From IMG/VR virus record IMGVR_UViG_3300037325_000137, positions 14,376-78,375 of that record: a DNA stretch of 64,000 nt; one strand, given 5' to 3'. Every line of letters starts with the position of its first letter. Positions within the stretch are counted from its first letter, which is position 1. The position numbers and the translations under genes were made by a program. Below, in pieces: positions 1-49,693 of this stretch. Below the pieces are notes generated by a model. That model made no database searches. It had not been told where the DNA came from and worked only from the letters and a program-made list of their open reading frames with translations. The stretch comes from a virus.

Positions 1-175
1 TTTGTTTGTTTGACTTCCACCAGTTAATATCGCCTTTAGCTGATTGACCACTAGCCATGTGATGAAGTATAACAGTTTTCTTTTCTGTTTGTATTTTATA
101 GTATTGATCATCTGGAAAGTTATAATCTATAACTTTATGACCTTTCCATTCCCATTCCCTTTTTATAGTACTCAT
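1..175 (-). CDS. Endolysin, N-acetylmuramoyl-L-alanine amidase-like (5' part, runs off window)
   Basis: Hand translation MSTIKREWEWKGHKVIDYNFPDDQYYKIQTEKKTVILHHMASGQSAKGDINWW; ILHH motif typical of Amidase_2; next to holin-like genes. Confidence 0.7.
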   Translation of the reverse strand, partial: MSTIKREWEWKGHKVIDYNFPDDQYYKIQTEKKTVILHHMASGQSAKGDINWWKSNKQ

Positions 176-13400: not shown

Positions 13401-16400
13401 AGAACCATCTTGATTAACTTCAAATTTAATTACTGTTGGTGTAATAGGCAGTGATTTTTGCTGTAAAGCATCTTGTACTGTTCCTAAAGAAAACTCTTGT
13501 TTGCCATCTGTAAAAACAATTTCGTTACCATCAAAAAACACATCACCAACAAGTTTTTCTTTGTTTATTGGATTAACATATTCTTGTTGTGATTTCTGTA
13601 TTCTTTCTAAGAATGTTCCTTTTGCATCTTGTGGTACGTTATTCGGTAGAGCAAGACTTCTTTTAACTTTATCTTTAAATATTTCAATAGAATCAGCGTT
13701 TTCAACGTCTTCGTTCTCTTCTAAGTATGCTTTGTAACTTTCTGTATGTTCTTCTGCTATACGATTAACTTCTTCATCACGATCTTTTTTAGGATCAATT
13801 TCTCCTTCAAGTCTAGTTACGGCATCTTCTTCATTCTCTAACTCGTCAAAGTAAGTTTGATTGGAATCTGACGCTTGTGCTATTGCTGTTTGAGTATCTG
13901 TGCTTTCAGACTGTGTTTGCTCAACTATATCTGTTCCTTCTGTATTTTCTTGTGTAGGGTTTTTAAAGTCTTCCACTCTTTCACTTAAAACTCTGCTTGC
14001 TTCTTCATTGTTTTTTATGTCTATAGATATAGTTCCGTTTGCTACTCCTTCGACAAAATTATCATCTGCTATTTTTTTATAAAGATCAGAACTGTTTGTG
14101 ATAATTTCTTCTTGACCATCTATCGTAATAGTTGTTTTTACCTCTGCGGATTCTATTAACTTAGCTTTTTCAGCTTCTAAAGAAGCAAGCCTTTGTTCTA
14201 AGAAAACTGTTTCTGATACACTATCAAGAGTAAGTTCTGTTTTACTTAAAGGATTTGTAGCAGCAGATTTAATATTGGTAATTGTCAACTCTATAGCACT
14301 TGCTTGCTCACTTATTTCAACTACTCTTTTCTTATCTTGAACAGTTAAGTTATCGTAAGCTTCAAAAGTTCTTTTTATCAACTTACCATTCTCTGTGTTT
14401 ATTTCTCTTATTCTACTTTGATAGGACTGAATTATAGTTGTTTTATCTTCTTCGCTTGTTGATTCGCTTTCTGAAACCTCTTCTATTTTTCTTAGCAAAG
14501 TATTTGTTTCCTTTACGTTTTTTACTATTGTTTTTCTAGAGTTTCTATCTCCTACTATATTACCTACAATTCCTGTTAAAGATGCAGTTCCAGACATCGC
14601 TCCACCAGCAGACATCCCTCCTATTGTTGCTTCCCATGTATTATCAAGAACGCTCTTTTTAGATCCGTCTTCGTTAAAGTTTTCTCCAAAAACATATTTA
14701 TCAGTAAGGTTTGTAAAAAGTGTAATACCTAATTCTTCACCTCCCTCACCAATAGTTCCTTTTCCAAATTCAATACCGCTATTTAAAGTTTTTTTTCTAA
14801 AGCTTTCAACCATTGCTGTTTGAAGTTTTGGCTTACCTATAGATAGTGTCGTTCTTTTTAAGGCTTTTAAGTTTCTTATTTTACCAAATTGAGCTAAAAA
14901 AAGTTCTACTCCTGCTGACGCATAAGAAACAGCCATTATTTCTGTTTCGCTAGGCTCTTGTATAGACTCTAATTGAGATTTACGTTTGTTTAATGCTGGT
15001 CTGTTTTGGATTGGTAAATTTTCTTTTAAAAGATCTTTATTTATTTGGTTTAAATCTTTTTGGTTATCAATCGTTCTTTGTCTAGTAGCTAATTCGGCAC
15101 TAGCTTGTTGTGAAGCGAAAAAAGAAGCTTGACCTACGTAAGGTATCGATAATTGAACTAATGTTGGTGTTGTATCTAGAAGAGTATTTTTTACAAATTC
15201 CCCAAAATCAGCTATGCCATCTACTTGGTCTAAGGATATTTTTTCTGTTAATACGTTTTTTCTGTATTCATTAATAGTAGCTACTCTTGATAAAGCTTCT
15301 TCTCTTATTCTTATAGTGTTAGCATCACCAGTCTCCATTTTACCAGTCTCTTCATTAAAAACAGGTATGTTAACGTTAAATAATTTTTCACCAGAATACA
15401 ATAGTCCAGATCCTATTTCTGCAAAACCAGTGCTTAAAGTTGCTTTTGTTTGAGTAGCAAAATCATAAGTTTTTTTAAGTAGTTCTTTTTCTTCTTCAAA
15501 TGTCCCTAAAGAGTTTTCACTCTCCATAGATTCATCTAAAACAGTTTGAGATTGTGCTGCTAATTCTTGACGCTGCACGACTAAACTTTCTAATTCTATT
15601 TTTTTATTTTCAAAGTCTTCTTTAAAAAGCTGTTGATCCTCTATCGTAAGATCAGGGTTATCCTTTATCGATTTGTTTATTTCGTCAAGACCGTTTGACA
15701 AAGACTCAATATTAAGGTCTATATCTGCAAATTCTTTGTTGGCTTTCGATATTGTTTTGTTTGCCTTGAATATTATGTTTTGATTTACTTGCTCTTCAAT
15801 AGCAACTAACTCTAATACTTTTTTTCTTTTTTCTGGATCTAGGTCATTTAAAAACTCTGTCTTCTTTCTTTTGGTAAAAGCTGTTTCAGCACTACCACTA
15901 TCTAGTTCTTGTTGTCTTTGTCTATTTAGCTCTTTAATTTCTTTTAATCTCTCTTTTTCAAAGTTTTTGTCACTTCCGAAAATTTTTGAGAAAGAAAAGT
16001 TTTTTAAGTCATTTTCTACACTTCCTAAAAAGCCTAGTTTTTCTCTTCTATTATCTAAGGTAATTTCGCTTTTAGATTCGGTTATAGTAGACCTTTCTTC
16101 GTCACTAATATTCCTTAAATTAATAAACTCTTGATAAGAGTTCTTAGTTTCTTGATCAGTTTTAGATATTACTTCATTATATTTTTTAGCAACTAAACTT
16201 TCAGAAAAATCAGCGTCAAACTCTATAGGTCGAAAATCTAAAGGTTGACTTTTAGGTATTGCTGTTTGTGACACCGAAGACAAAGACTCCACCTCGTTTG
16301 ATATATCCGATACGCCACTTTCCACACTTGAAGTAACAGTCGTAGTTTCTTTTTTTTTTACTTCATCAACTTTTACAGGCTCTTGTGTTGGCTGTTCTAC

Positions 16401-38755: not shown

Positions 38756-39511
38756 TTATTTGTTTTTATAATTTCCGTTTAACATATCAAAACCTTTTAA
38801 GTCTTGAACCTCGTAGTGTTTCCATTCTTCTTCTAAAACAATACTTATTTTTCTAGTTACAGTCCATCCAGATTTTTCTAGCATCTGTTCTTGAATGCGT
38901 AGTTGTAGAGCCAACTTAGATAGTTTACTAGTGGCAAGGGTTATTTCTTGTGGCAAGTTTTTGAAATTTGTAGTACCATGATCATCAAAATTTACATTTA
39001 CCTTATAATCAACCAAAATACATTCTTTTCTATCTTGATCTGTGACAATTAAATTATCAACTAAGGCACAAACATCATTTTCTACATCAGAAACTAAAGA
39101 TTCTGGAAAGGATTGACCTCTTAAGCCTAGATTTTTTGCGTAAATAAAAAAGTCTTTTACTATGGCTTTAATAATTGGGTGCTTTATATTAAAACACCTT
39201 TCTCCATTCTTTTTTAAGTTACGTCTATAAAGTAGTTCGTATTCAATTGCTTCATGAATAGCAGTTCCAAAACCTCTAGCAATGTTTCCGCTTAATTCCC
39301 AAGCTTTTTCAATAGTTTCTTTTGGTATTTGCCAATTTACCTCACACCTATCTGCAACCTCTTCTGAATCAAATTCTTCTATATATCGTTTTGAGAACGT
39401 AGTAGCACCGCTTAGTATTCTATCTTTATAAACGTATCTATGATCTATTGGATCAAAGTTTATAATCAAGTCCTCGTTAAAGGACTTGATGTTGTTTTTC
39501 TCTAGTAGCAT
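38756..39511 (-). CDS. PD-(D/E)XK exonuclease-like protein
   Basis: GTAIHEAIE, PE, VD, LVDYK motifs. Confidence 0.7.
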   Translation of the reverse strand: MLLEKNNIKSFNEDLIINFDPIDHRYVYKDRILSGATTFSKRYIEEFDSEEVADRCEVNWQIPKETIEKAWELSGNIARGFGTAIHEAIEYELLYRRNLKKNGERCFNIKHPIIKAIVKDFFIYAKNLGLRGQSFPESLVSDVENDVCALVDNLIVTDQDRKECILVDYKVNVNFDDHGTTNFKNLPQEITLATSKLSKLALQLRIQEQMLEKSGWTVTRKISIVLEEEWKHYEVQDLKGFDMLNGNYKNK

Positions 39512-39514
39512 ATC

Positions 39515-39943
39515 TTAATCTTTAGAAGCACTTACTTTAAGATAACCTTTACCAAATTTTATTATTGGCATAGGTAATATTTCACCGTCTGTTGTTACAT
39601 TACTATTTGTGTTTCCAGAAATAAAACTGTCGTGCATTCGTTTATATTTTGTTTCCATGTCTTTCACGTAATCTTTAGCACTCATAACTTCTGGAACACC
39701 GCTATAATCGTAAGTTTTTCTACCAGAAACCAAAGTAACCTTGAAACCTCTGTAGCCGTTAGGGTGTTCGTTTGCTTGATTAGCTATATCTTCTGCGTTT
39801 TCTGTCTCAAACTGTTTAACAGCTCCTAGAATAAGGTCTGCTGTAGTTTTAAGTTCACGTAAATCGATAAGGGCATCAAGTTCAGATAACATACCGTCAT
39901 CTACTTTTTGTACTGTGTCTTGTAATTGTTGTAATAAATTCAT
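39515..39943 (-). CDS. Hypothetical phage protein
   Basis: 142-aa ORF in recombination block. Confidence 0.55.
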   Translation of the reverse strand: MNLLQQLQDTVQKVDDGMLSELDALIDLRELKTTADLILGAVKQFETENAEDIANQANEHPNGYRGFKVTLVSGRKTYDYSGVPEVMSAKDYVKDMETKYKRMHDSFISGNTNSNVTTDGEILPMPIIKFGKGYLKVSASKD

Positions 39944-40222
39944 AGTTTTTAGTTTTAAATTTTAGTCTCTGCAATTTTCTTTTAAATCTGCCTTGGCACA
40001 TGAAGTAGAGCAAAAATCTTCTGCCGTTGGTGTACCACAATAGCTACAAGTATTATCGTGTTCAACTTCATCAAAATATTCTTGATCGTCTAAGTCTCTT
40101 GTTTCTGGCATAATTAATCTTTTCTAAATGTTGGTCTTTCTTGCTCTTGAACCCAATCCAAATAAACTTCGTTATCATTTATTTGTGAGCTTTCAAACTC
40201 TCTTTGGTCATGGTGTAACTCT

Positions 40223-40435
40223 TTACTTCCTTTCATGATCGTATAGTGATTTAAGCCTTAAATAAAAAGGCGTGAATGTTTTTTTACCGCTATTAGCTAA
40301 AAGTATTTCTAAATGAGAATCAACAAACTTTTTCTTGTTAACTACAACTGTTGCTTCGTTTAGATTAAATGGTTCTGAATCTAATTCATGAGTCTTAAAA
40401 AACTCTACCATTTCTTTGAAGTCAGTATTACTCAA
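40223..40435 (-). CDS. Hypothetical protein
   Basis: 70-aa ORF. Confidence 0.5.
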   Translation of the reverse strand: MSNTDFKEMVEFFKTHELDSEPFNLNEATVVVNKKKFVDSHLEILLANSGKKTFTPFYLRLKSLYDHERK

Positions 40436-41081
40436 CTCCTTTTTTTAAATTATCAATTCTAATAGTTATTTGATTTCTTTGATCTTCTGTTAGATCATAA
40501 TAAGATATAGAAGACTCTAATGCTTTAATATCTTTAGATACTATAACATTGTTTTGAAACGTAGTATCTGGAAGCTTTGGCTTATTAGCTACTAGTGTTG
40601 GTGCTTGTTTTGGTAGCTGGTGGTCGTTTGAGTGTGTAGCCTCTGTGTCGTCTATTTTCCCTACAGGCGTTAAGAAAGCATATAGCAAACAGTTCTTTAA
40701 AGCGTAAGTGGTTGCTTTTCCAGCTCCTTTATCTTGTGGGTCTACTCCATGTCCATATCCTGCTAAAACTTGACTCTCGCCAGAAGTGTGAAGTAATAAA
40801 TACTTAGTTGTCACCTTAGTAAATACTGATTGCTTTTGCTTAATACTAGTTACACCGTTCCAAACTTCTTCTTGATCCCATCTATCAATTTGAGTAGACT
40901 CTTCAATCCCGATTGGTAGAATACAAAGACCGTTTCTAACTAAAGCATCGTTAAAAATCTCTTTTACATCCGAGTCCTTAGTGCCATTATATGCTGAATT
41001 ACCCTTTCCTACTTTACTGTTTTTCTCCATGCCCTTAACTTCTGACATTACCGCTACAATAGCTTCTGCTAAATTTTTCAT
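40428..41081 (-). CDS. erf: ERF-family single-strand annealing protein
   Basis: LLHTSGES...DPQDKGAGKATTYALKNCL...DD motif. Confidence 0.75.
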   Translation of the reverse strand: MKNLAEAIVAVMSEVKGMEKNSKVGKGNSAYNGTKDSDVKEIFNDALVRNGLCILPIGIEESTQIDRWDQEEVWNGVTSIKQKQSVFTKVTTKYLLLHTSGESQVLAGYGHGVDPQDKGAGKATTYALKNCLLYAFLTPVGKIDDTEATHSNDHQLPKQAPTLVANKPKLPDTTFQNNVIVSKDIKALESSISYYDLTEDQRNQITIRIDNLKKGVE

Positions 41082-42337: not shown

Positions 42338-42566
42338 AAAAATCGATTATTGAATTGTGAGCCTTTAATATTTTAATTAGATTCATATAAGTGCTATTAT
42401 CTTGTGTTTCTTTTATAAATATTTCTAAGAACTCTTTGTGAGTAATAGGCTTGTAATTTATAAAGAAATCATATTTAAGACTAGGATTAGATGTGATTAT
42501 ATTTCCTATTTCTTGAATATTGTAGGATTTAAACCTGTGACCTAAATTATTTCTAATTTTATACAT
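42318..42566 (-). CDS. Hypothetical protein coupled to integrase stop
   Basis: 82-aa ORF. Confidence 0.45.
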   Translation of the reverse strand: MYKIRNNLGHRFKSYNIQEIGNIITSNPSLKYDFFINYKPITHKEFLEIFIKETQDNSTYMNLIKILKAHNSIIDFYEKQDK

Positions 42567-43375
42567 TAAATAGGCATTTGAATTTTGCTTAAATGATTTT
42601 TTGAAACGTGGGTGTAAATTTCAGTTGTCTTAGAGCTTTGATGCCCCGCAATAGATTGGATTATCCTTAAATCAGTACCTCCCTCTAGTAAGTGAGTGAA
42701 GCAACTATGCCTAAGCTGATGCATATAAGCATCTTCTTTAATATACTTTTTAATTATTTTATTACAAGATGTGGCTGAATACTGTAAAGAAGACTGACCG
42801 TTAAAAAGATATTCTTTTGGTCTATGTTTTTTAAAGTAATCCCTAAGTGTTTTTAGTAGCCCATTAGACAAAGGAACAACTCTATCTTTCTTGCCTTTAG
42901 CTTGAATTATATGAATCAATCCTCTATTTGAATCAATGTTTTCTATTTTCAGATTTATTATTTCTGAAACCCTTAATCCGCAACTATATGCTGCGGATAA
43001 AATAGCTTTATGTTTCATGTTTTTTATAGATAATATTTTTTCTGTAAGAATTTTTTTATCTATTATTTGGGGTAGCTTTTTTTCTTTTCTAGGTCTTGAA
43101 AAATCTACTTTATCGTATTTTTTATTCAGAACTTTTTTGTAAAGAAACTTGATTGAGCTTATTATTTGATTTTGTTGCGATATAGAGCTGAAATTATAAT
43201 TTTCTAAATAAGATTTAAAATCATTACTATCTAGCTTAGAAGGAGACTTTTTATTGACTCTTAAAAATTCTTCAACGTAATAACTATATATTTTTACAGT
43301 ATTTTTACTGTAGTTAAAATAGTTCAATTTTGAAATGAAATTCTGCAGAAAAGTGTGTTTAGTTTTGCTTAACAT
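42566..43375 (-). CDS. Tyrosine recombinase (integron-integrase-related, no IntI-specific insertion)
   Basis: SAM-like N-domain (YSKNTVKIY, SQQNQIISSIKFLY); catalytic set GLR, KGKKDR, HQLRHS, GH, IYTHV all intact. Confidence 0.92.
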   Translation of the reverse strand: MLSKTKHTFLQNFISKLNYFNYSKNTVKIYSYYVEEFLRVNKKSPSKLDSNDFKSYLENYNFSSISQQNQIISSIKFLYKKVLNKKYDKVDFSRPRKEKKLPQIIDKKILTEKILSIKNMKHKAILSAAYSCGLRVSEIINLKIENIDSNRGLIHIIQAKGKKDRVVPLSNGLLKTLRDYFKKHRPKEYLFNGQSSLQYSATSCNKIIKKYIKEDAYMHQLRHSCFTHLLEGGTDLRIIQSIAGHQSSKTTEIYTHVSKNHLSKIQMPI

Positions 43376-43430
43376 ATTGATTTATATTGATTTGTTAGTT
43401 ATGGTTGATATATAGTAGTTAGCAAACATT
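43374..43430 (+). other. attI-like primary recombination site
   Basis: ATATTGATTT x2 (43374-43393) then G|TTAGCAAAC core at 43418 with no partner hairpin arm; array begins here. Confidence 0.65.
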
Positions 43431-43709
43431 ATTCAAATAATCACAGTACATTTTTGCCTGTTCTTCGCTATGTATAAAGAACACTACCTCTATACCTTTG
43501 CCATCGAGTACCGCTTTACCTTGTTTTCTGCCAACTCTAAAAGGTGGTGTATATTTATTAGCATCATAACGTTTGCTAACACCAGATAAAATTAATGCCT
43601 CGTCTACTGCATTTTTAATAAGTCCTATACATTCTTCTTTTGCTAATGAAGTTCCTACCCAACTTTTTAAATTTTGTGCATGTTTATCAATTATTTGCTC
43701 TTTAGTCAT
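43419..43709 (-). CDS. Cassette 1 hypothetical protein
   Basis: Starts in att1 loop; ALILSGVSKR is encoded by the att arm; stop is the core TTA. Confidence 0.65.
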   Translation of the reverse strand: MTKEQIIDKHAQNLKSWVGTSLAKEECIGLIKNAVDEALILSGVSKRYDANKYTPPFRVGRKQGKAVLDGKGIEVVFFIHSEEQAKMYCDYLNNVC

Positions 43710-43772
43710 TGTCTATTTATTTAATTATTGTTATTATTTATCGGCACTAATCTTATCTGCGGTACGTTAGCT
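43571..43772. repeat. att site 1
   Basis: gctaacaccagataaaattaatgcc ... ggcactaatcttatctgcggtacgttagc. Confidence 0.85.
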
Positions 43773-43780
43773 ACAAGTGC

Positions 43781-44500
43781 TTAATTTAGTTGATTAAACA
43801 AAGTTGGTGCTTCAATCTCTTTTTCTTTTTTTTTCCCCACCCTTTCACTCGCAATATCAAAATAATCCTGTTGCATTTCAATTCCAATAAATCTTCTATT
43901 TAGGTTTTTACAAGCAACTCCTGTTGTACCACTACCCATAAAAGGGTCTAATACTACTTCGTTTTCATTAGTTGAGTTGTTTATATAAAATTCCATTAAT
44001 TCTATTGGTTTTTCTGTTGGGTGTACTTTACTCCCAATTATATTATTAAAAGAATGTACTGTTTTGCTTCCGCCAATGTCATTTATGTATTTAGATTTTC
44101 CTTTTCTAAAAAATATAGTGTACTCGCAATTCTTCATATAAAATTGAGAAGGTGTGCAGTTGTTTTTTTGCCAAACTAAAAAGTTTTGTATTTTAAATCC
44201 TGCTTTTTCTATCTCGTTTGCCATTTTTAGTAAATTAGAAGAGTTTACCATCACATAGTTTTGAGTTCCATCTTTTAGTATTCTAAACATTTCTGGCAAC
44301 CATTCACTAAATTTAGGAACACTCCTCATTAGTTCTCTATTTCCTTTCAATATACCTTTTGGTCTAATACTGTTTTTGCCATTACTATCACCTCCTGTTA
44401 TTATTTTATAAGGAGGGTCAGTAACTACACAATCAATACTTTCGCTTGGTAATGTTTTTAATATTTCAAGGGCATCACCCATTTTTAAATCTATATTCAT
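43781..44500 (-). CDS. Cassette 2: DNA amino-methyltransferase (N6/N4, beta class)
   Basis: VTDPPY, HPTEKP, LDPFMGSGTTG motifs. Confidence 0.93.
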   Translation of the reverse strand: MNIDLKMGDALEILKTLPSESIDCVVTDPPYKIITGGDSNGKNSIRPKGILKGNRELMRSVPKFSEWLPEMFRILKDGTQNYVMVNSSNLLKMANEIEKAGFKIQNFLVWQKNNCTPSQFYMKNCEYTIFFRKGKSKYINDIGGSKTVHSFNNIIGSKVHPTEKPIELMEFYINNSTNENEVVLDPFMGSGTTGVACKNLNRRFIGIEMQQDYFDIASERVGKKKEKEIEAPTLFNQLN

Positions 44501-44597
44501 AATGTTTTAATTTTATCAAATTAATTTGCCAACGCTCAAAAAAGAAAATAAAAAGGTTCAGTTCTATTAATTAAGTTTAGGTGTTTAAAGTCGCACC

Positions 44598-44657
44598 AGT
44601 AGGTAACACTGTATAAAAGCCATTGAAAATAACGGCTCTTATACCCATCCGTTAGCA
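44598..44657. repeat. att site 2 (short)
   Basis: taacactgtataaaagcc ... ggctcttatacccatccgtta. Confidence 0.8.
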
Positions 44658-44661
44658 ACAA

Positions 44662-44904
44662 TTAATTGCCCTGTAAGTAATTGTCTGCAATCCATTCTTT
44701 ACTTACAAACCTATTTCCTCCACCTTTTTCAAGGCTTGTTAAAAGGTCAATTAACAGTTCCCTTCGGTTGCTAACATCGTTTAACCGTAATTGCTCGGTT
44801 ACGTACTTATCTATGAAGTCTGTTAACCATTCTACCTTTTCATTTCCAGTCATATCGTTTCTTGATACAAGTTGGTTTAATTTTTCAATCTCTGTTATTT
44901 TCAT
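44662..44904 (-). CDS. Cassette 3 hypothetical protein
   Basis: Starts in att3 loop; QLRLNDVSNR is encoded by the arm. Confidence 0.6.
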   Translation of the reverse strand: MKITEIEKLNQLVSRNDMTGNEKVEWLTDFIDKYVTEQLRLNDVSNRRELLIDLLTSLEKGGGNRFVSKEWIADNYLQGN

Positions 44905-44968
44905 CTGTTCTTATTTATTAAGTTTTGTTATTAATTCACGCAACTACGGTTACACGTAGCCGTTGTAG
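44766..44968. repeat. att site 3
   Basis: aacatcgtttaaccgtaattgc ... gcaactacggttacacgtagccgtt. Confidence 0.85.
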
Positions 44969-44973
44969 TGCAT

Positions 44974-45270
44974 TTACATTACGTTTCGCTCGATACTTAT
45001 GTTTTTATCAGTAACAACTACTATAAAGCTTGTTCTTTGCACCGCCAAAGGGGCTTTTTTTTCAAGATGTTTAAGAACGTGGTTTGCACCATTATTTACT
45101 ATATCACGTCTAGTTTTTAATTGATGAAGTTTGTTTTGTACTTGCTCAATTTCGGCTTCCAATTCTTCTTTCTCTAAAGCTATATTCACTAATATATCAG
45201 CCCCTTTTATTTCCTCGCCTTGAATAAGGTCAGTAATTCCAGAGAAACTTAGGTCGTCAATTTTTTTCAT
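44974..45270 (-). CDS. Cassette 4 hypothetical coiled-coil protein
   Basis: ORF 44974-45285; likely start MKKIDD at 45270. Confidence 0.55.
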   Translation of the reverse strand: MKKIDDLSFSGITDLIQGEEIKGADILVNIALEKEELEAEIEQVQNKLHQLKTRRDIVNNGANHVLKHLEKKAPLAVQRTSFIVVVTDKNISIERNVM

Positions 45271-45281
45271 AGCAAAAAAAC

Positions 45282-45416
45282 GCACTACAACACTGTATAA
45301 AAATAATAGCCTGTTGTAGTGTCTTTTTAGTGGCTATTACTCACTTATTAATTAATTGTTTAACTTAAACTTTTCGCTTATTTATTCGGCTACTATTCTT
45401 ATACTAAACGTTGTAA
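45282..45416. repeat. att site 4
   Basis: aacactgtataaaaataatagcc ... ggctactattcttatactaaacgtt. Confidence 0.88.
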
Positions 45417-45420
45417 GTAA

Positions 45421-45654
45421 TTAAGGTTCGAGATACCTCAAAGGCACTTCTTTACTCCAAAAACCACCCTTATCAATGTTCTGTACTAACGCTCTTGGTT
45501 CGTCATAATATTCTTGTGTTTTACCATCTTGAAATATTGGATAATACACCAACATCCATCTGTCTTTTTTACCATCCATTTTATAAACGCTTTCGTTACG
45601 CTTATGATTTTTCCAAATCGGGTGGTTTAAGGCTTTTTCTAAATCTATGTTCAT
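45421..45654 (-). CDS. Cassette 5 hypothetical protein
   Basis: 77-aa ORF filling the cassette. Confidence 0.6.
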   Translation of the reverse strand: MNIDLEKALNHPIWKNHKRNESVYKMDGKKDRWMLVYYPIFQDGKTQEYYDEPRALVQNIDKGGFWSKEVPLRYLEP

Positions 45655-45671
45655 TTCTTATTTGCTTTAAC

Positions 45672-45877
45672 TACTTACAACACTATATATAATTAATATA
45701 AAAGGGGCGCAGTCCAACTATCCGTTATTCCTTTCGGGTCAAGCCTAAGCCCCCACGGAAGGAACGTTTTACAGGCTTTGGACACCTTCAATTTCACTAT
45801 CTAAAACGCTGTTGGTAAACCCACTAATTTCTGCATTTTTAACCCCTTTTAAACTAATCATATATTTTACGTTATAA
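45672..45877. repeat. att site 5
   Basis: aacactatatataattaatataaaagggg ... ccccttttaaactaatcatatattttacgtt. Confidence 0.8.
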
Positions 45878-46144
45878 ACAATACTCTTTTTGTGTATATG
45901 GTTCAGAGTAGAAGCATTTATCAGTACTATCAAATTTAATATTTCTATACCAAGTTATTTCTGTATTTGTTGTTTTTCCTGTTCTACTACTGCAATCACA
46001 ATCTTTATGACATTGGCAACTACCATTATCAATAGAAGTGTATTTTTTAGTAAATATTCTATAAGAAACACCATCTATAATTGTGATTTGCAATGCTTCC
46101 ATTTCTATATTCAATCTTTTAGGGTTTAACAATCTTTCTCGCAT
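45872..46144 (-). CDS. Cassette 6 Cys-rich protein
   Basis: CQCHKDCDC motif; likely start MRERLL (46144) or MEALQ; stop is the core TTA. Confidence 0.55.
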   Translation of the reverse strand: MRERLLNPKRLNIEMEALQITIIDGVSYRIFTKKYTSIDNGSCQCHKDCDCSSRTGKTTNTEITWYRNIKFDSTDKCFYSEPYTQKEYCL

Positions 46145-46155
46145 AACTTCCGTAC

Positions 46156-46253
46156 AGTTTATAACACAGGCTATAAATAAAAGCCCTGTCAAGGTTATTG
46201 TTGTGAATCGAACTTTGTGTTTAGGGCTTCAATTCATAGCCGAGCCGTTATCT
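46156..46253. repeat. att site 6
   Basis: aacacaggctataaataaaagccct ... agggcttcaattcatagccgagccgtt. Confidence 0.85.
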
Positions 46254-46424
46254 TTAATAATCAAACTCTTCCTCATTTAATACATCAAAGTGAATATCCT
46301 CATTTAATACATCAAAGTGAATATCCTCTATTTTGTTTTTAATAAACAGTCTTTTAATTCGATAGATAACTAAAGATAACAATGTATAAAATGCATAGCT
46401 TAATTTCGTTCTTAAATTTTTCAT
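46254..46424 (-). CDS. Cassette 7, 56-aa protein with duplicated EDIHFDVLN (not in ORF track)
   Basis: MKNLRTKLSYAFYTLLSLVIYRIKRLFIKNKIEDIHFDVLNEDIHFDVLNEEEFDY; 27-bp tandem repeat 46270-46323. Confidence 0.5.
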   Translation of the reverse strand: MKNLRTKLSYAFYTLLSLVIYRIKRLFIKNKIEDIHFDVLNEDIHFDVLNEEEFDY

Positions 46425-46511
46425 CTGTTCTGTTTTTAAAGTTTATAATTTATAATTAATTCAAAGTCTGTGGTGTTTAGGTCGCTACGCACCTTATACT
46501 AAACGTTGTGT
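46371..46511. repeat. att site 7
   Basis: aacaatgtataaaatgcatagc ... gctacgcaccttatactaaacgtt. Confidence 0.85.
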
Positions 46512-46519
46512 GTAATACT

Positions 46520-46762
46520 TTATTTAGGTTCGTTTACAGCATTACTATCTACTTTTTTCCAAGGACGTTCTATCATATTACAACCTGCTTGATACCAAGT
46601 TTGTATTTGTAATTTATTACATTTTGTACACTTTCTAAAATGAGCATATCTATTATCTTCTTTTCTACCACCGTCCCAATACTTATAAGGATGATATAAA
46701 TTAAAAAAACAAAGTAATTTTTGCAATGCTTTAGGTTTGTCTATTCTTAAAACTTTTTCCAT
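46520..46762 (-). CDS. Cassette 8 small Zn-binding-like protein
   Basis: LLCFFNLYH ... RKCTKC motif. Confidence 0.6.
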   Translation of the reverse strand: MEKVLRIDKPKALQKLLCFFNLYHPYKYWDGGRKEDNRYAHFRKCTKCNKLQIQTWYQAGCNMIERPWKKVDSNAVNEPK

Positions 46763-46793
46763 TTTAATAAAGTTTGTGGCTTAAATTCCGTAT

Positions 46794-46892
46794 TACACAC
46801 AACAATGTATATAGTTTATAAGCCAATTAATATTTGTTTTTAATTTGTAAATTTCTGATATGGCTTACAAAACCATATACTCAACGTTAGGC
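46794..46892. repeat. att site 8
   Basis: aacaatgtatatagtttataagcca ... tggcttacaaaaccatatactcaacgtt. Confidence 0.88.
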
Positions 46893-46896
46893 ACAA

Positions 46897-47202
46897 TTAA
46901 GGTTTGCGTCCTAATAACTTACTTAGCTTCATCCCCAACCACTCAGGGCAAGGTATAGCTACTACCCATCTTAAATAAGGCAATATACCTACAAAACCAA
47001 TCCCCCAATGCTCTGTTGCAACTATTGAAACTTCAAAGCTAAATGCGTCTAAAGTCCAAAATGTAAATATTAGCCATCTAAAACTAAAACTACTTGTATT
47101 GTGTTCGTCTGCTTTCCTTATTTCTATTAAGGGTATTAATGGAAATACATTTTTGTTGTACCATTTTTCTGTTCTCATTCTTCCTGATGCTGTTTGTGAC
47201 AT
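46897..47202 (-). CDS. Cassette 9 hypothetical Trp/Phe-rich protein
   Basis: 101-aa ORF filling the cassette. Confidence 0.6.
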   Translation of the reverse strand: MSQTASGRMRTEKWYNKNVFPLIPLIEIRKADEHNTSSFSFRWLIFTFWTLDAFSFEVSIVATEHWGIGFVGILPYLRWVVAIPCPEWLGMKLSKLLGRKP

Positions 47203-47209
47203 AATTAAA

Positions 47210-47306
47210 AGTGCCTAACAATAGCTAAAGTTAATAGCCTCAATAGGTCTTGTTATAATTTGATGGTTAGTATTAAAGGCTACTAACCTTAGCCTAGACG
47301 TTATGA
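47210..47306. repeat. att site 9
   Basis: aacaatagctaaagttaatagcct ... aggctactaaccttagcctagacgtt. Confidence 0.88.
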
Positions 47307-47459
47307 TGCAATTAAAATTTTAAGCATCTCGTTTAACTTCCCTACACATTGAGCATAGTATCGTTCATTATCTTCCTGTTTCATTATTTTAGCTACTTCA
47401 TAAAGGTCTGTATAAATACCAATTTTCTTTATTACAATACTTTTTAGTTCATCCATCAT
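47301..47459 (-). CDS. Cassette 10 small helical protein
   Basis: ORF 47301-47483; likely start MMDELK; stop is the core TTA. Confidence 0.5.
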   Translation of the reverse strand: MMDELKSIVIKKIGIYTDLYEVAKIMKQEDNERYYAQCVGKLNEMLKILIAS

Positions 47460-47471
47460 TAAAATTTTAAA

Positions 47472-47566
47472 AGCACATAACAATGTATAAAATTAATGCG
47501 CTATGATAATTAGTGTTAAATTTTTAAGTATGTGGTTAGCGCACTAATCTTATACTAACTGCAATG
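47472..47566. repeat. att site 10 (GTT core missing)
   Basis: aacaatgtataaaattaatgcgcta ... tagcgcactaatcttatactaact, then gcaatg. Confidence 0.75.
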
Positions 47567-47569
47567 TTG

Positions 47570-47818
47570 CTATTTAAAGTTTTGCCTAAACGGCTTGTTA
47601 CATTTTGGACAAGAAGTGCCTAAATACAAGCCTTTGATTATCGGTTCGCAACACTGTTCGCTCTGCCTTACAACAACGGGTATAGAAAATAATTCAGAAG
47701 GCATCAGTCTTTCTATCACGTCTATTGCACTCCATATTTCTCTTGATTCATAACTGTGATGTATTGAGTCAAAGTGTTCTGCTCTTTTTTCTAGTGTTTT
47801 AATAACGTCTGCTTTCAT
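47570..47818 (-). CDS. Cassette 11 protein with C-terminal CPKC zinc ribbon
   Basis: Starts in att11 loop; ELFSIPVVVRQ is encoded by the arm. Confidence 0.6.
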   Translation of the reverse strand: MKADVIKTLEKRAEHFDSIHHSYESREIWSAIDVIERLMPSELFSIPVVVRQSEQCCEPIIKGLYLGTSCPKCNKPFRQNFK

Positions 47819-47878
47819 CTTTTAAGTTTTTGCGTTTTAAATCCTCCTAAATTAAATTCCATACCCAAACCGTTAGCA
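47665..47878. repeat. att site 11
   Basis: aacaacgggtatagaaaataatt ... aattaaattccatacccaaaccgtt. Confidence 0.75.
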
Positions 47879-47998
47879 TTAATACTCAGTACCTAAGTAT
47901 TCTACTAAATAAGGGTAGTCCCAACTTTTACTGCTACTGTAATACATTTTCCAGTAACCTCTATTATTCTTTATTATTTCAGTCCATTTACTTGTCAT
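47879..47998 (-). CDS. Cassette 12, 39-aa aromatic-rich peptide (not in ORF track)
   Basis: MTSKWTEIIKNNRGYWKMYYSSSKSWDYPYLVEYLGTEY fills the cassette. Confidence 0.5.
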   Translation of the reverse strand: MTSKWTEIIKNNRGYWKMYYSSSKSWDYPYLVEYLGTEY

Positions 47999-48022
47999 AG
48001 TTTCTATTTTTTAAGTCCGTAC

Positions 48023-48078
48023 TAATGCTAACAATATGTAAAAAACATTAAAACGATGTGTTATACTAGACGTTAGCA
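48023..48078. repeat. att site 12 (minimal, ~56 bp)
   Basis: gctaacaatatgtaaaaaacat ... atgtgttatactagacgttagc. Confidence 0.7.
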
Positions 48079-48357
48079 AACATTTATGTTGTTGCTATCT
48101 ATAAAGCTTTTAGGATTTCCGCAACCTATTAAAAACTCTGCTCCGTTACCTAATTTAAAGTAACATCTATCCCAATCATTGCTTCTATCGAAAGTAAAAT
48201 TTTCACCTTTTTTTATGGTATAATAACACCCTTTCCAACTCAAATTCTCCCTTCTATTGTTAGGTATATTACCCACATCAGTGGCTTCTATGGGTGTGCT
48301 ACCATACCTACCTTTATCAATAAAAACTCTAATATCTTCTGTTGCTTGTAAATTCAT
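48073..48357 (-). CDS. Cassette 13 hypothetical protein
   Basis: ORF 48073-48378; likely start MNLQAT; ends NVC* on the core site. Confidence 0.6.
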   Translation of the reverse strand: MNLQATEDIRVFIDKGRYGSTPIEATDVGNIPNNRRENLSWKGCYYTIKKGENFTFDRSNDWDRCYFKLGNGAEFLIGCGNPKSFIDSNNINVC

Positions 48358-48366
48358 AATTAAACG

Positions 48367-48463
48367 ATTTGCTAACACAACCTATACACCATAAAGCAAT
48401 ATAGTATTGTGCTAATATTAAACATTGTGCTACGCTTTACGGTGCATAGCTTTACCGTTGGCG
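48367..48463. repeat. att site 13
   Basis: aacacaacctatacaccataaagc ... gctttacggtgcatagctttaccgtt. Confidence 0.85.
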
Positions 48464-48469
48464 GTAATA

Positions 48470-48820
48470 CTACATTAGTACCTTATCCATCATTTCATTT
48501 ATGTTCTCCGCAATTTTTTCATCATAACCTCTATTGTAAAATTCATCGCCAGTAGTCAAATGATAAGTACCTATGTTATCCAAATACTGTTTCATTTTTT
48601 CATAAGGTTCAGTATTTTCATACCCTATCAAATTAAGATAAGACCAATAACATTTAATAGAAAATTGCTCTGTGTTTGTTCCTCTATCTGTTCTTTTTTC
48701 GTTTTGTCTTTGTATCCATAAGGCTTGTTCTTTCTTGTAGTCTGTGTACTTTAAAGCCGTACTACTGCCAACAAAAAATATAGCAAATGCTTTTCGTAAT
48801 CTTTGGGTAAATTGTTTCAT
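48470..48820 (-). CDS. Cassette 14 hypothetical protein
   Basis: Starts in att14 loop; AFAIFFVGSS is encoded by the arm. Confidence 0.6.
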   Translation of the reverse strand: MKQFTQRLRKAFAIFFVGSSTALKYTDYKKEQALWIQRQNEKRTDRGTNTEQFSIKCYWSYLNLIGYENTEPYEKMKQYLDNIGTYHLTTGDEFYNRGYDEKIAENINEMMDKVLM

Positions 48821-48886
48821 ACTTCTAATTTTTAGTTCATTTAAGTTAGAGTGTTGTTGGCACTTGCCATCTTCAAACCGTTAGCC
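48763..48886. repeat. att site 14
   Basis: aacaaaaaatatagcaaatgc ... gcacttgccatcttcaaaccgtt. Confidence 0.8.
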
Positions 48887-49147
48887 ACCATTTGAAAAAC
48901 CGCACTCATCCAAGAAGCTTTGTCCAACAGGAGAACCTAACCATTGAATTAAGTTTACGCAAATATCTTCTTCTTTTTCGGACAACCACTCTTTAGGTTG
49001 CGTTTGTCTATCATTAGACCACCCATTCACAATAGCACTTAGGCTTTTTCTGGCAGAACCATCATGATTGAACATTTTAATAAATTTATCGTGAAATTCT
49101 TTTTCTTTAGGATTGTCATTAAATCTGTATTCTTTATTGCCTTTCAT
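48881..49147 (-). CDS. Cassette 15 hypothetical protein
   Basis: IQWLGSPVGQSFL motif; stop is the core TTA. Confidence 0.65.
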   Translation of the reverse strand: MKGNKEYRFNDNPKEKEFHDKFIKMFNHDGSARKSLSAIVNGWSNDRQTQPKEWLSEKEEDICVNLIQWLGSPVGQSFLDECGFSNGG

Positions 49148-49155
49148 AGTAAAAC

Positions 49156-49281
49156 GGTGGCTAACAATGTATATAGCAAATAGCCTTATTAGCCATTTTA
49201 GAAACTACTTGCTTGTTTATAATTTATTTACTTTTTACTTAATTCTGTGATAGGCTACTTGCCATATACTAAACATTGTAG
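49156..49281. repeat. att site 15 (core ATT instead of GTT)
   Basis: aacaatgtatatagcaaatagcct ... aggctacttgccatatactaaacatt. Confidence 0.85.
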
Positions 49282-49302
49282 TGCATTAAAACGTTCGATT
49301 CG

Positions 49303-49693
49303 CCACAACAACACGCTATATAAATAATGCTTGGTTTCGTGCTGTAATCAAAGTTTAGCGCTTTTAATGCCATAATTAAATATTTTTAAAAACCCATTCA
49401 CCATTTAGTTTCCAAGTTTCTTTATCATAGTAAACTTCTACTACTATATTTTGCATTTTATTATGGCAACGTAAATTTCCACAAGAGAAGTCTACTGCTT
49501 CAATACCTAATTCATCATTTACATCAATAAAATCTTGGTTTTTACTCGTTGCTATCAACCTTACTGGGTATTCTGCTTTCTTTTTTAATACTTCTTTTAA
49601 GTTCATTTTTAAAAATATTTAATTATTAGTTCTGTGTTTAATTCAAAGTTTCGTTCATTTAATGTCGCACTATTCATATAGCAACAGTTACCC
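49303..49693. repeat. att site 16 (gene inside loop)
   Basis: aacacgctatataaataatgc ... gcactattcatatagcaacagtt. Confidence 0.75.
49376..49606 (-). CDS. Hypothetical protein inside att16 loop
   Basis: 76 aa, bracketed by a perfect 21-bp inverted repeat. Confidence 0.6.
   Translation of the reverse strand: MNLKEVLKKKAEYPVRLIATSKNQDFIDVNDELGIEAVDFSCGNLRCHNKMQNIVVEVYYDKETWKLNGEWVFKNI

Follow-up and report, generated by a model that had tools for sequence, protein, structure and literature searches.

The window, by which is meant the whole analysed stretch of 64,000 nucleotides (nt) of viral DNA (positions 14,376 to 78,375 of IMG/VR record IMGVR_UViG_3300037325_000137), is a phage genome which very probably contains an integron-type cassette array, from which single cassettes are cut out and re-inserted at G|TT. 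The array extends from 43418 to about 49690, directly to the right of a recombinase gene, and comprises about 17 short open reading frames (ORFs) of the minus strand lying between imperfect palindromes. Read on the plus strand, each site consists of a cassette-specific arm, AAC, a conserved inner half (e.g. AATGTATAAAA), a loop, the complementary half (e.g. TTATACTAAAC), GTT and a second cassette-specific arm. The 15-17 sites are 45-200 nt long and have the make-up of attC-type palindromes, with invariant AAC and GTT (ATT in one case) and a conserved inner stem. The start of a cassette matches the reverse complement of its own R'' arm, which lies beyond the ORF.

For its measurement the cassette start was taken as the G of GTT and the end of R'' as the C of AAC, and the R'' boxes were placed by AAC and the following conserved inner half (L'' motif), blind to the arm match. 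The seven pairs quoted in an earlier sequence-only reading of this DNA are all present as written, namely c1 (43418/43580), c4 (44962/45291), c5 (45410/45681), c8 (46505/46803, perfect at 14/14), c12 (47872/48032), c14 (48457/48772) and c15 (48880/49165). To these can be added own pairs starting at 43766, 44651 (R'' 44775), 45871, 46247 and 46886 and, with a one-base indel, at 47300 and 48072. It had been stated as well that the adjacent downstream R' mostly does not match, and in 14 cassettes (positions 4-16) the array neighbour indeed agrees at 4.1/13 as compared with 9.4/13 for the own arm, the value for all non-own pairs being 4.35/13 (standard deviation 1.8, maximum 9). In 12 of the 14 starts it is the own partner that matches best. 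When own pairings were set against shuffled ones, the summed identity was 132 versus 65.9 +/- 8.0 (maximum 105), and none of 100000 permutations reached 132. The own-arm observation is thereby confirmed as real and highly significant.

The matched arms have a regular shape. In 12 ungapped pairs of the window positions 1-10 and 12-14 are almost always matched, whereas position 11 is mismatched in 11, in 10 of them as A in the start arm versus G in the reverse complement of R''; the single mismatches in the pairs quoted earlier all fall on position 11 and are all A versus G. The same profile is found in 96 distinct own pairs from relatives, where the match rate is 0.93-1.0 at positions 1-9, 0.78 at position 10, 0.03 at position 11, 0.83-0.97 at positions 12-15 and 0.32 from position 16 onward; position 11 is mismatched in 97% of these pairs, as A/G in 82 of 93. 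The 96 pairs were selected at >=9/13, so their overall match level is conditioned on that choice, but the dip at a single position is not its artefact. The joined site is therefore a 15-bp outer stem in which position 11 is fixed as A.C on the plus strand and, on the coding strand, as a wobble G.T. That a non-canonical position should be conserved between arms separated by hundreds of bases in the array is sensible only if the arms meet. The earlier statement that the match is longer than the 7-bp R box of the canonical attC holds good, the full length being 15 bp.

Folding of cassettes joined in silico at G|TT, with DNA parameters, leads to the same result. The circle form has an energy of -14.7 (plus strand) and -17.7 (minus strand) kcal/mol as against -10.1 and -12.1 kcal/mol for the array form, and arms substituted from other cassettes give about -10.0 kcal/mol. 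The difference is pronounced in c8 (-20.7/-22.8 versus -8.7/-10.2 kcal/mol) and c15 (-18.0/-21.8 versus -8.8/-10.1 kcal/mol). That the full stem needs the cassette's own arm, as had been proposed, is borne out by 10 of 14 cassettes in which the own arm is the best of 18. Stems of the minus strand are continuous and those of the plus strand are interrupted at regular places by A.C mismatches. Besides the G.T/A.C asymmetry the folds display, in place of single flipped-out bases, an internal loop that is asymmetric (minus strand, about 4 x 2).

The rule is not confined to the window. In an arm-blind scan, for which only the inner stem between AAC and GTT was used, the 10 kb upstream of homologous recombinases were covered in 53 IMG/VR loci, and at >=9/13 the ORF-flanking (own) arms matched in 109 of 243 cases as compared with 7 of 322 for the site-flanking (array) arms and 4 of 25 for the downstream control. 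Inner-stem energy does not separate sites from background (the best control reaches -8.5 kcal/mol and true sites -5.8 to -12), so that the family-wide scan is noisy and its counts are lower bounds. Loose half-site motif searches over the whole window returned mostly noise, and, as the inner-stem sequence differs from array to array, a strict pattern detects few of the sites in relatives. Arrays of relatives, lying beside the enzyme gene, contain up to 18 units.

Homologous cassettes were compared with phages of the same site family and with further loci. The arms of c2 are AGCTAC/ACCTAC and those of gp38 of Polaribacter phage P12002L are GTATGC/GTATGTC, with an unchanged distal arm. In c10 the arms are ATGATGC/ATGTGC versus GTACGC on both sides of gp061 in Tenacibaculum phage Gundel_1, and the c4 arm GTAGTGC stands against AGCCGT in loci L164 and L165, whose arms are self-complementary. 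Homologous cassettes thus differ in their proximal arms, each of which is complementary to its own partner, and the pairing is conserved by compensatory change.

Own-arm pairing alone cannot tell at which end the cut falls, as the ORF lies between the two arms whichever strand is read; comparative data decide the matter. In L001, whose recombinase is 67% identical, a 394-nt unit is present twice at 100% identity with AA|C on both sides in the sense orientation. Its order in sense is AA|C, site body, GTT, arm, ORF, arm, AA|C, which in window plus orientation is from G|TT to G|TT, and the end of the second copy is separated from the start codon of the recombinase by about 35 nt. Segments 93-100% identical among L017, L018, L041, L044, L045 and L061 start with TAAC and end with AAC (at least 10 ends); they are followed by the attI-like core in L018 and L044 and by the next site in L061. 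Among the segment ends classified automatically 8 lie at AAC and none at the sense-strand GTT. Three cassettes occupy the attI-like core of one contig and an internal array position in another; identical cassettes adjoin the attI-like site of L001, L018 and L044 and are internal to arrays elsewhere. This core, arm-AAC|TAYTATATAT in sense, is conserved about 40 nt upstream of the start codon in six loci (the window, L001, L007, L012, L015 and L026) and, with the cassettes found at it, agrees with the preferred insertion point beside the 5' end of the recombinase gene that is expected of an attI.

Public runs give a similar picture. The entire stretch is found in only one of them, a salt-lake metagenome and possibly its source; the comparison was made with assembled contigs only, and array parts that lack cover there are uninformative. 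Contigs of 4 other salt-lake runs match c4 from exactly 44962, with 327 unlike letters upstream in one record, and in those runs c7 occurs as an isolated piece (45869-46241) with unlike sequence on both sides. In other samples c3 is joined behind a different attC site body, and metagenome contigs diverge just past GTTA at 47304 and 48450. The crossover at G|TT of the plus strand, claimed before from the pairs, is supported by these breakpoints (the L001 duplicate, the shared segments and the metagenome contigs). The companion claim, that units move singly, agrees with c4 and c7 standing alone in other contexts, with the duplicated unit of L001 and with cassettes present both at the attI site and in arrays.

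A circular intermediate, a folded coding strand as the substrate and the neighbouring recombinase as the catalyst would account for these observations. Each site (arm'-AAC, conserved inner stem, loop, GTT-arm on the plus strand) would be cut between G and TT on the plus strand, that is at AA|C on the minus (coding) strand. With such a cut each array site is a hybrid, its R'' arm belonging to the cassette on the left and the bases after G to the next one. The own arms of a cassette lie on either side of its ORF and would meet only after excision, on joining of the cassette ends. The joined site, paired at positions 1-10, wobbled at 11 and paired at 12-15, followed by the asymmetric internal loop and the inner stem, is predicted to fold best on the coding strand, which bears AA|C at the crossover, and the cassette would then enter at the attI-like site. 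Tyrosine recombinases cut at the 5' edge of the spacer, and the polarity of AA|C on the coding strand is as expected.

Several points weigh against this reading. The circular intermediate is something that we infer, and in the assembled contigs of the public runs neither a circle junction nor an excision product was seen. Cassette c11 (47566) is without an arm match, c16 (49275) has a weak one, and a possible ORF-less unit at 45724-45871 is an uncertain match. Some metagenome breakpoints lie elsewhere (about 46786, 47211 and 44542), and the arms of c9 with a similar body carry a different ORF in metagenome contigs and a methyltransferase in P12002L; unrelated ORFs on the same arms and body, together with the off-site breakpoints, indicate that homologous exchange between similar sites, or another way of ORF loading, also acts. 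In the array form the outer stem is limited to GTT/AAC and 1-2 chance pairs, so that excision would have to act on a site far weaker than the one used for insertion. As the better-folding strand is the mRNA-like one, RNA structure could be responsible for part of the G.T/G.U bias. Finally, P12002L_attC1, the one typical site of the family tested in the report on P12002L (PMC9892861), gave no verified junction with IntI1, a result that bears on IntI1 and not on the enzyme of the window.

The strand bias leads to the first alternative, which is unlikely: the arms could pair in RNA, where the flanks of each ORF in a polycistronic sense transcript would form an ORF-enclosing stem serving as a processing or stability signal. 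The coding strand has continuous stems and G.T (G.U in RNA) wobbles, and in the linear array the arms are free to pair only in a transcript. Nevertheless, a signal of this kind does not explain why GTT/AAC is invariant exactly where cassettes part and are rejoined, why an attI-like core is conserved next to the recombinase gene, or why cassettes occur at attI as well as inside arrays. The AA|C cleavage polarity on the coding strand fits the chemistry of tyrosine recombinases.

Very unlikely is a crossover at the other end of the site (AA|C of the plus strand), each ORF then travelling with the site on its left. ORF followed by site on the coding strand would be the canonical cassette layout, the own pairing is symmetric and does not discriminate, and the plus strand has the longer spacer on its 3' arm, where canonical bottom strands are said to carry extrahelical bases. 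The moved units speak otherwise: those that are duplicated or shared take in the site upstream of the ORF and have AA|C of the coding strand at either end, the piece with c4 begins at 44962 and that with c7 covers 45869-46241, and no classified end lies at the coding-strand GTT. Moreover, the array meets the recombinase gene at its 5' end, where there is a conserved core.

It is scarcely credible that the inverted repeats flanking the ORFs are sites of inversion switches or terminal repeats of tiny transposons, even though each ORF is bracketed by an inverted repeat of 15-25 bp and the adjacent tyrosine recombinase is of a type related to invertases (weak NCBIfam matches). All 16-17 ORFs have one direction, the moved units have their limits at AAC and not where the inverted repeat ends on the outside, a single complete site body is included in each, and target duplications were not seen; among the high-scoring segment pairs of a plus-strand search no cassette occurred in both orientations between the same arms. 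Chance or composition, to which a GC content of 31% and motifs shared by the arms (GTTA/GTTG, often AAT/TAA) might lend colour, is rejected in view of the permutation result, the ceiling of 9/13 for non-own pairs and the recurrence of the rule in 53 independent loci with an internal control.

The Xer-like recombinase of 269 amino acids (aa) beside the array is presumably the cassette recombinase. Its NCBIfam scores are all below cutoff (XerA_Arch 180/220, XerD 159/330 and XerC 148/335 bits), as is the score with the integron integrase model TIGR02249 (158/265 bits, in 2 stretches; PRK15417 103/435), and the invertase matches are weak. The best solved relative is Pyrococcus XerA (4a8e, 1.2e-38). 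In the alignment with VchIntIA (2a3v) query residues 181-211 (31) replace chain residues 181-259 (79), which means that the IntI-specific region (I2 helix region) is absent and that the enzyme lacks the additional domain of integron integrases. It does not qualify as an Xer chromosome-dimer resolvase either: it is below the XerA/XerC/XerD cutoffs, its gene adjoins a cassette array in a phage, and a dif-like site was not identified. At E <=1e-30 the enzyme has more than 6700 relatives with a length of 263-270 aa, which their sources call XerD or integrase, and the nearest relatives have 76% identity. No array was found upstream of relatives in bacterial genomes (40-52% identity). Own-pairing hairpin arrays are located downstream, not upstream, of some bacterial-genome relatives with 40-47% identity (L134, L126, L116 and L122), which include a Bacteroidota metagenome-assembled genome and a Desulfitobacterium chromosome.

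A wider proposition can be advanced with considerable reserve. Arrays of this kind might form a separate and widespread integron-like lineage, found in Bacteroidota phages and in related viral contigs, in which short Xer-type recombinases act by recognition of the stem. The enzyme would recognise the long cassette-specific stem, present in the joined cassette alone, and not flipped-out bases by means of the IntI insertion, and the strand would be chosen by the fixed G.T wobble 11 bases from the cut together with further wobbles of the inner stem. If true, single-stranded cassette recombination would either have been solved here independently or survive here in an early form.

Features of the array and of the adjoining recombinase gene (R'', box in window coordinates; own-arm match, agreement of the cassette start with its own R'')
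Feature	Coordinates	Strand	R''	Own-arm match	Remarks
Xer-like tyrosine recombinase	42566..43375	-			269 aa; Pfam PF00589 (3.6e-37) + PF13495
attI-like junction	43376..43420				core TATATAGTA, then G|TT at 43418
c1	43418..43766	+	43566-43580	11/13	R'' within ORF 43419-43709(-); inner stem AAC 43578 to GTT 43766, -8.5 kcal/mol
c2	43766..44651	+	44593-44607	9/13	DNA methyltransferase ORF 43781-44500(-), PF01555 2e-41
c3	44651..44962	+	44761-44775	positions 1-9	R'' within ORF 44662-44904(-); stem -10.7 kcal/mol
c4	44962..45410	+	45277-45291	10/13	
c5	45410..45871	+	45667-45681	11/13	
c7	45871..46247	+	46151-46165	9/13	
cassette (no c number)	46247..46505	+	46366-46380	11/13	
c8	46505..46886	+	46789-46803	perfect over 14 nt	
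c9	46886..47300	+	47205-47219	10/13	101-aa ORF without known function
c10	47300..47566	+	47467-47481	about 24 nt with one-base indel	
c11	47566..47872	+	47660-47677 (R''-like)	none	R''-like box within ORF 47570-47818(-)
c12	47872..48072	+	48018-48032	10/13	
c13	48072..48457	+	48362-48376	8/13 ungapped	better with indel
c14	48457..48880	+	48758-48772	9/13	
c15	48880..49275	+	49151-49165	11/13	
last unit (c16)	49275..49689	+	49298-49312	6/13 (weak)	ATT start, not GTT

Some units call for comment. The c5 site may be a short attC reaching to 45724 and followed by an ORF-less unit, or a single long attC reaching to 45871; both pairings fold. The small ORF of the cassette at 46247-46505 contains a perfect 27-nt tandem duplication (46270-46323). 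An arm pair (GTTAGGCAC...) is used both at 46886-47300 of the window and at 4126-4950 of L081, with different cargo, including gp35 of P12002L. In c1, c3 and c11 the R'' box and the inner half-site are inside the ORF, and the N-terminal part of the gene is coded within the loop of the site. The last site (49310-49689) is long and its loop contains a whole 76-aa ORF, 49376-49606(-); a like layout is found in gp37 of P12002L. A homolog of c11 in Gundel_1 (L082 6005-6295) is likewise devoid of arm pairing; it lies at the edge of a three-unit array with no recombinase nearby and begins with GCT, not GTT. No R'' partner was found for the arm after 49687, so the array probably ends there. With regard to cargo, c2 encodes an N6/N4 DNA methyltransferase and the P12002L array carries three methyltransferases, which suggests a counter-restriction function. 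A tblastn search of the 17 cassette ORFs against 82 loci returned homologs for the methyltransferase, c5 and c11 only, and an IMG/VR scan gave three loci with the c4 protein and no match with the c15 protein.

The genome is of the virulent type. Its phage markers include the large terminase, portal protein, virion proteins and an ERF recombinase, nearly all genes of the window are on the minus strand, and the GC content is about 31%. The closest DNA matches are phages of Flavobacteriia, i.e. Polaribacter phages P12002L/S, Tenacibaculum phage Gundel_1 and Flavobacterium phages. Just past the recombinase gene (38756-41081) there are an exonuclease-like gene and one for a single-strand annealing protein (ERF), by which single-stranded DNA might be supplied in the course of infection. 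Several contigs with a recombinase and an array (among L001-L080; e.g. L001, L002, L006 and L065) span 200-350 kb, and very large phages, or cellular DNA entered as viral, may harbour the system as well.

Comparison with known systems starts with the integron, in which the crossover falls between the first and second base of GTTRRRY (PMC8876359). The window shares with the integron attC (59-base element) the imperfect palindrome R''-L''...L'-R', the invariant AAC/GTT and the G|TT crossover, as well as hybrid array sites, insertion beside the recombinase gene and one strand that folds better than the other. Both a G|TT crossover and a cassette start matching its own R'' are found here, on the indirect evidence of own-arm statistics and comparative breakpoints. 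Hall, Brookes and Stokes (1991) and Stokes et al. (1997) reportedly located the crossover by means of the match of a cassette start with its own inverse core. In contrast to integrons, the recombinase of the window is without the IntI-specific insertion and the host is a phage; the outer stem has 15 bp with a fixed wobble at position 11 in place of a 7-bp R box, and surplus spacer bases stand on the cleaved arm of the folding strand. Moreover, all cassette ORFs are antisense to the attC top strand (R'' to R') instead of being co-oriented with it, and are co-directional with the recombinase gene, with the consequence that the cassettes are read towards that gene, along with the rest of the phage.

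The nearest published relative is the two-site attC cluster (CALIN) which Qi et al. 2023 described in the virulent Polaribacter phage P12002L (PMC9892861). It belongs to the same site family as the window, with partly common arms, site bodies and methyltransferase cargo, but no recombinase adjoins its array (gp43, which does adjoin it, is not a recombinase). The attC2 site at the edge of that array did recombine with IntI1, and the sections of PMC9892861 considered contain no description of own-arm pairing or of an Xer-like enzyme. No literature linking such arrays to a short Xer-like enzyme was found, the coverage being incomplete and absence thus unproven. Several methyltransferases in related arrays suggest an exchange of counter-defence genes among phages.

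As regards Xer systems (XerA, XerC/D), the enzyme of the window is nearest to archaeal XerA among solved structures and of the same size class. Xer sites are double-stranded, with two conserved 11-bp arms, whereas in the sites of the window one arm is cassette-specific, and this fits recognition by structure, not by sequence. Like the pdif modules of Acinetobacter plasmids, which are single genes bracketed by inverted recombination sites (PMC7399989), the units of the window are single bracketed genes; unlike Xer/dif and pdif, the family forms arrays beside the enzyme gene, of up to 18 units. Since attC recognition is thought to require a domain which this enzyme does not have, the system offers a natural test of a plain Xer-like recombinase on folded, sequence-variable sites, and also of how integron integrases arose from Xer-like ancestors (PMC4792948). 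The own-R'' relation, visible in the bare sequence, marks the phage arrays as active cassette systems with a defined crossover and not as decayed look-alike clusters, and it supplies an arm-blind rule (arms flanking an ORF pair, those flanking a site do not, and there is a wobble at position 11), by which like behaviour is recovered in dozens of uncultured viral contigs. It can be said that the own-R'' principle is textbook integron biology and that what sets the system apart is its platform: a phage, an Xer-like enzyme, antisense genes and a long wobbled stem.

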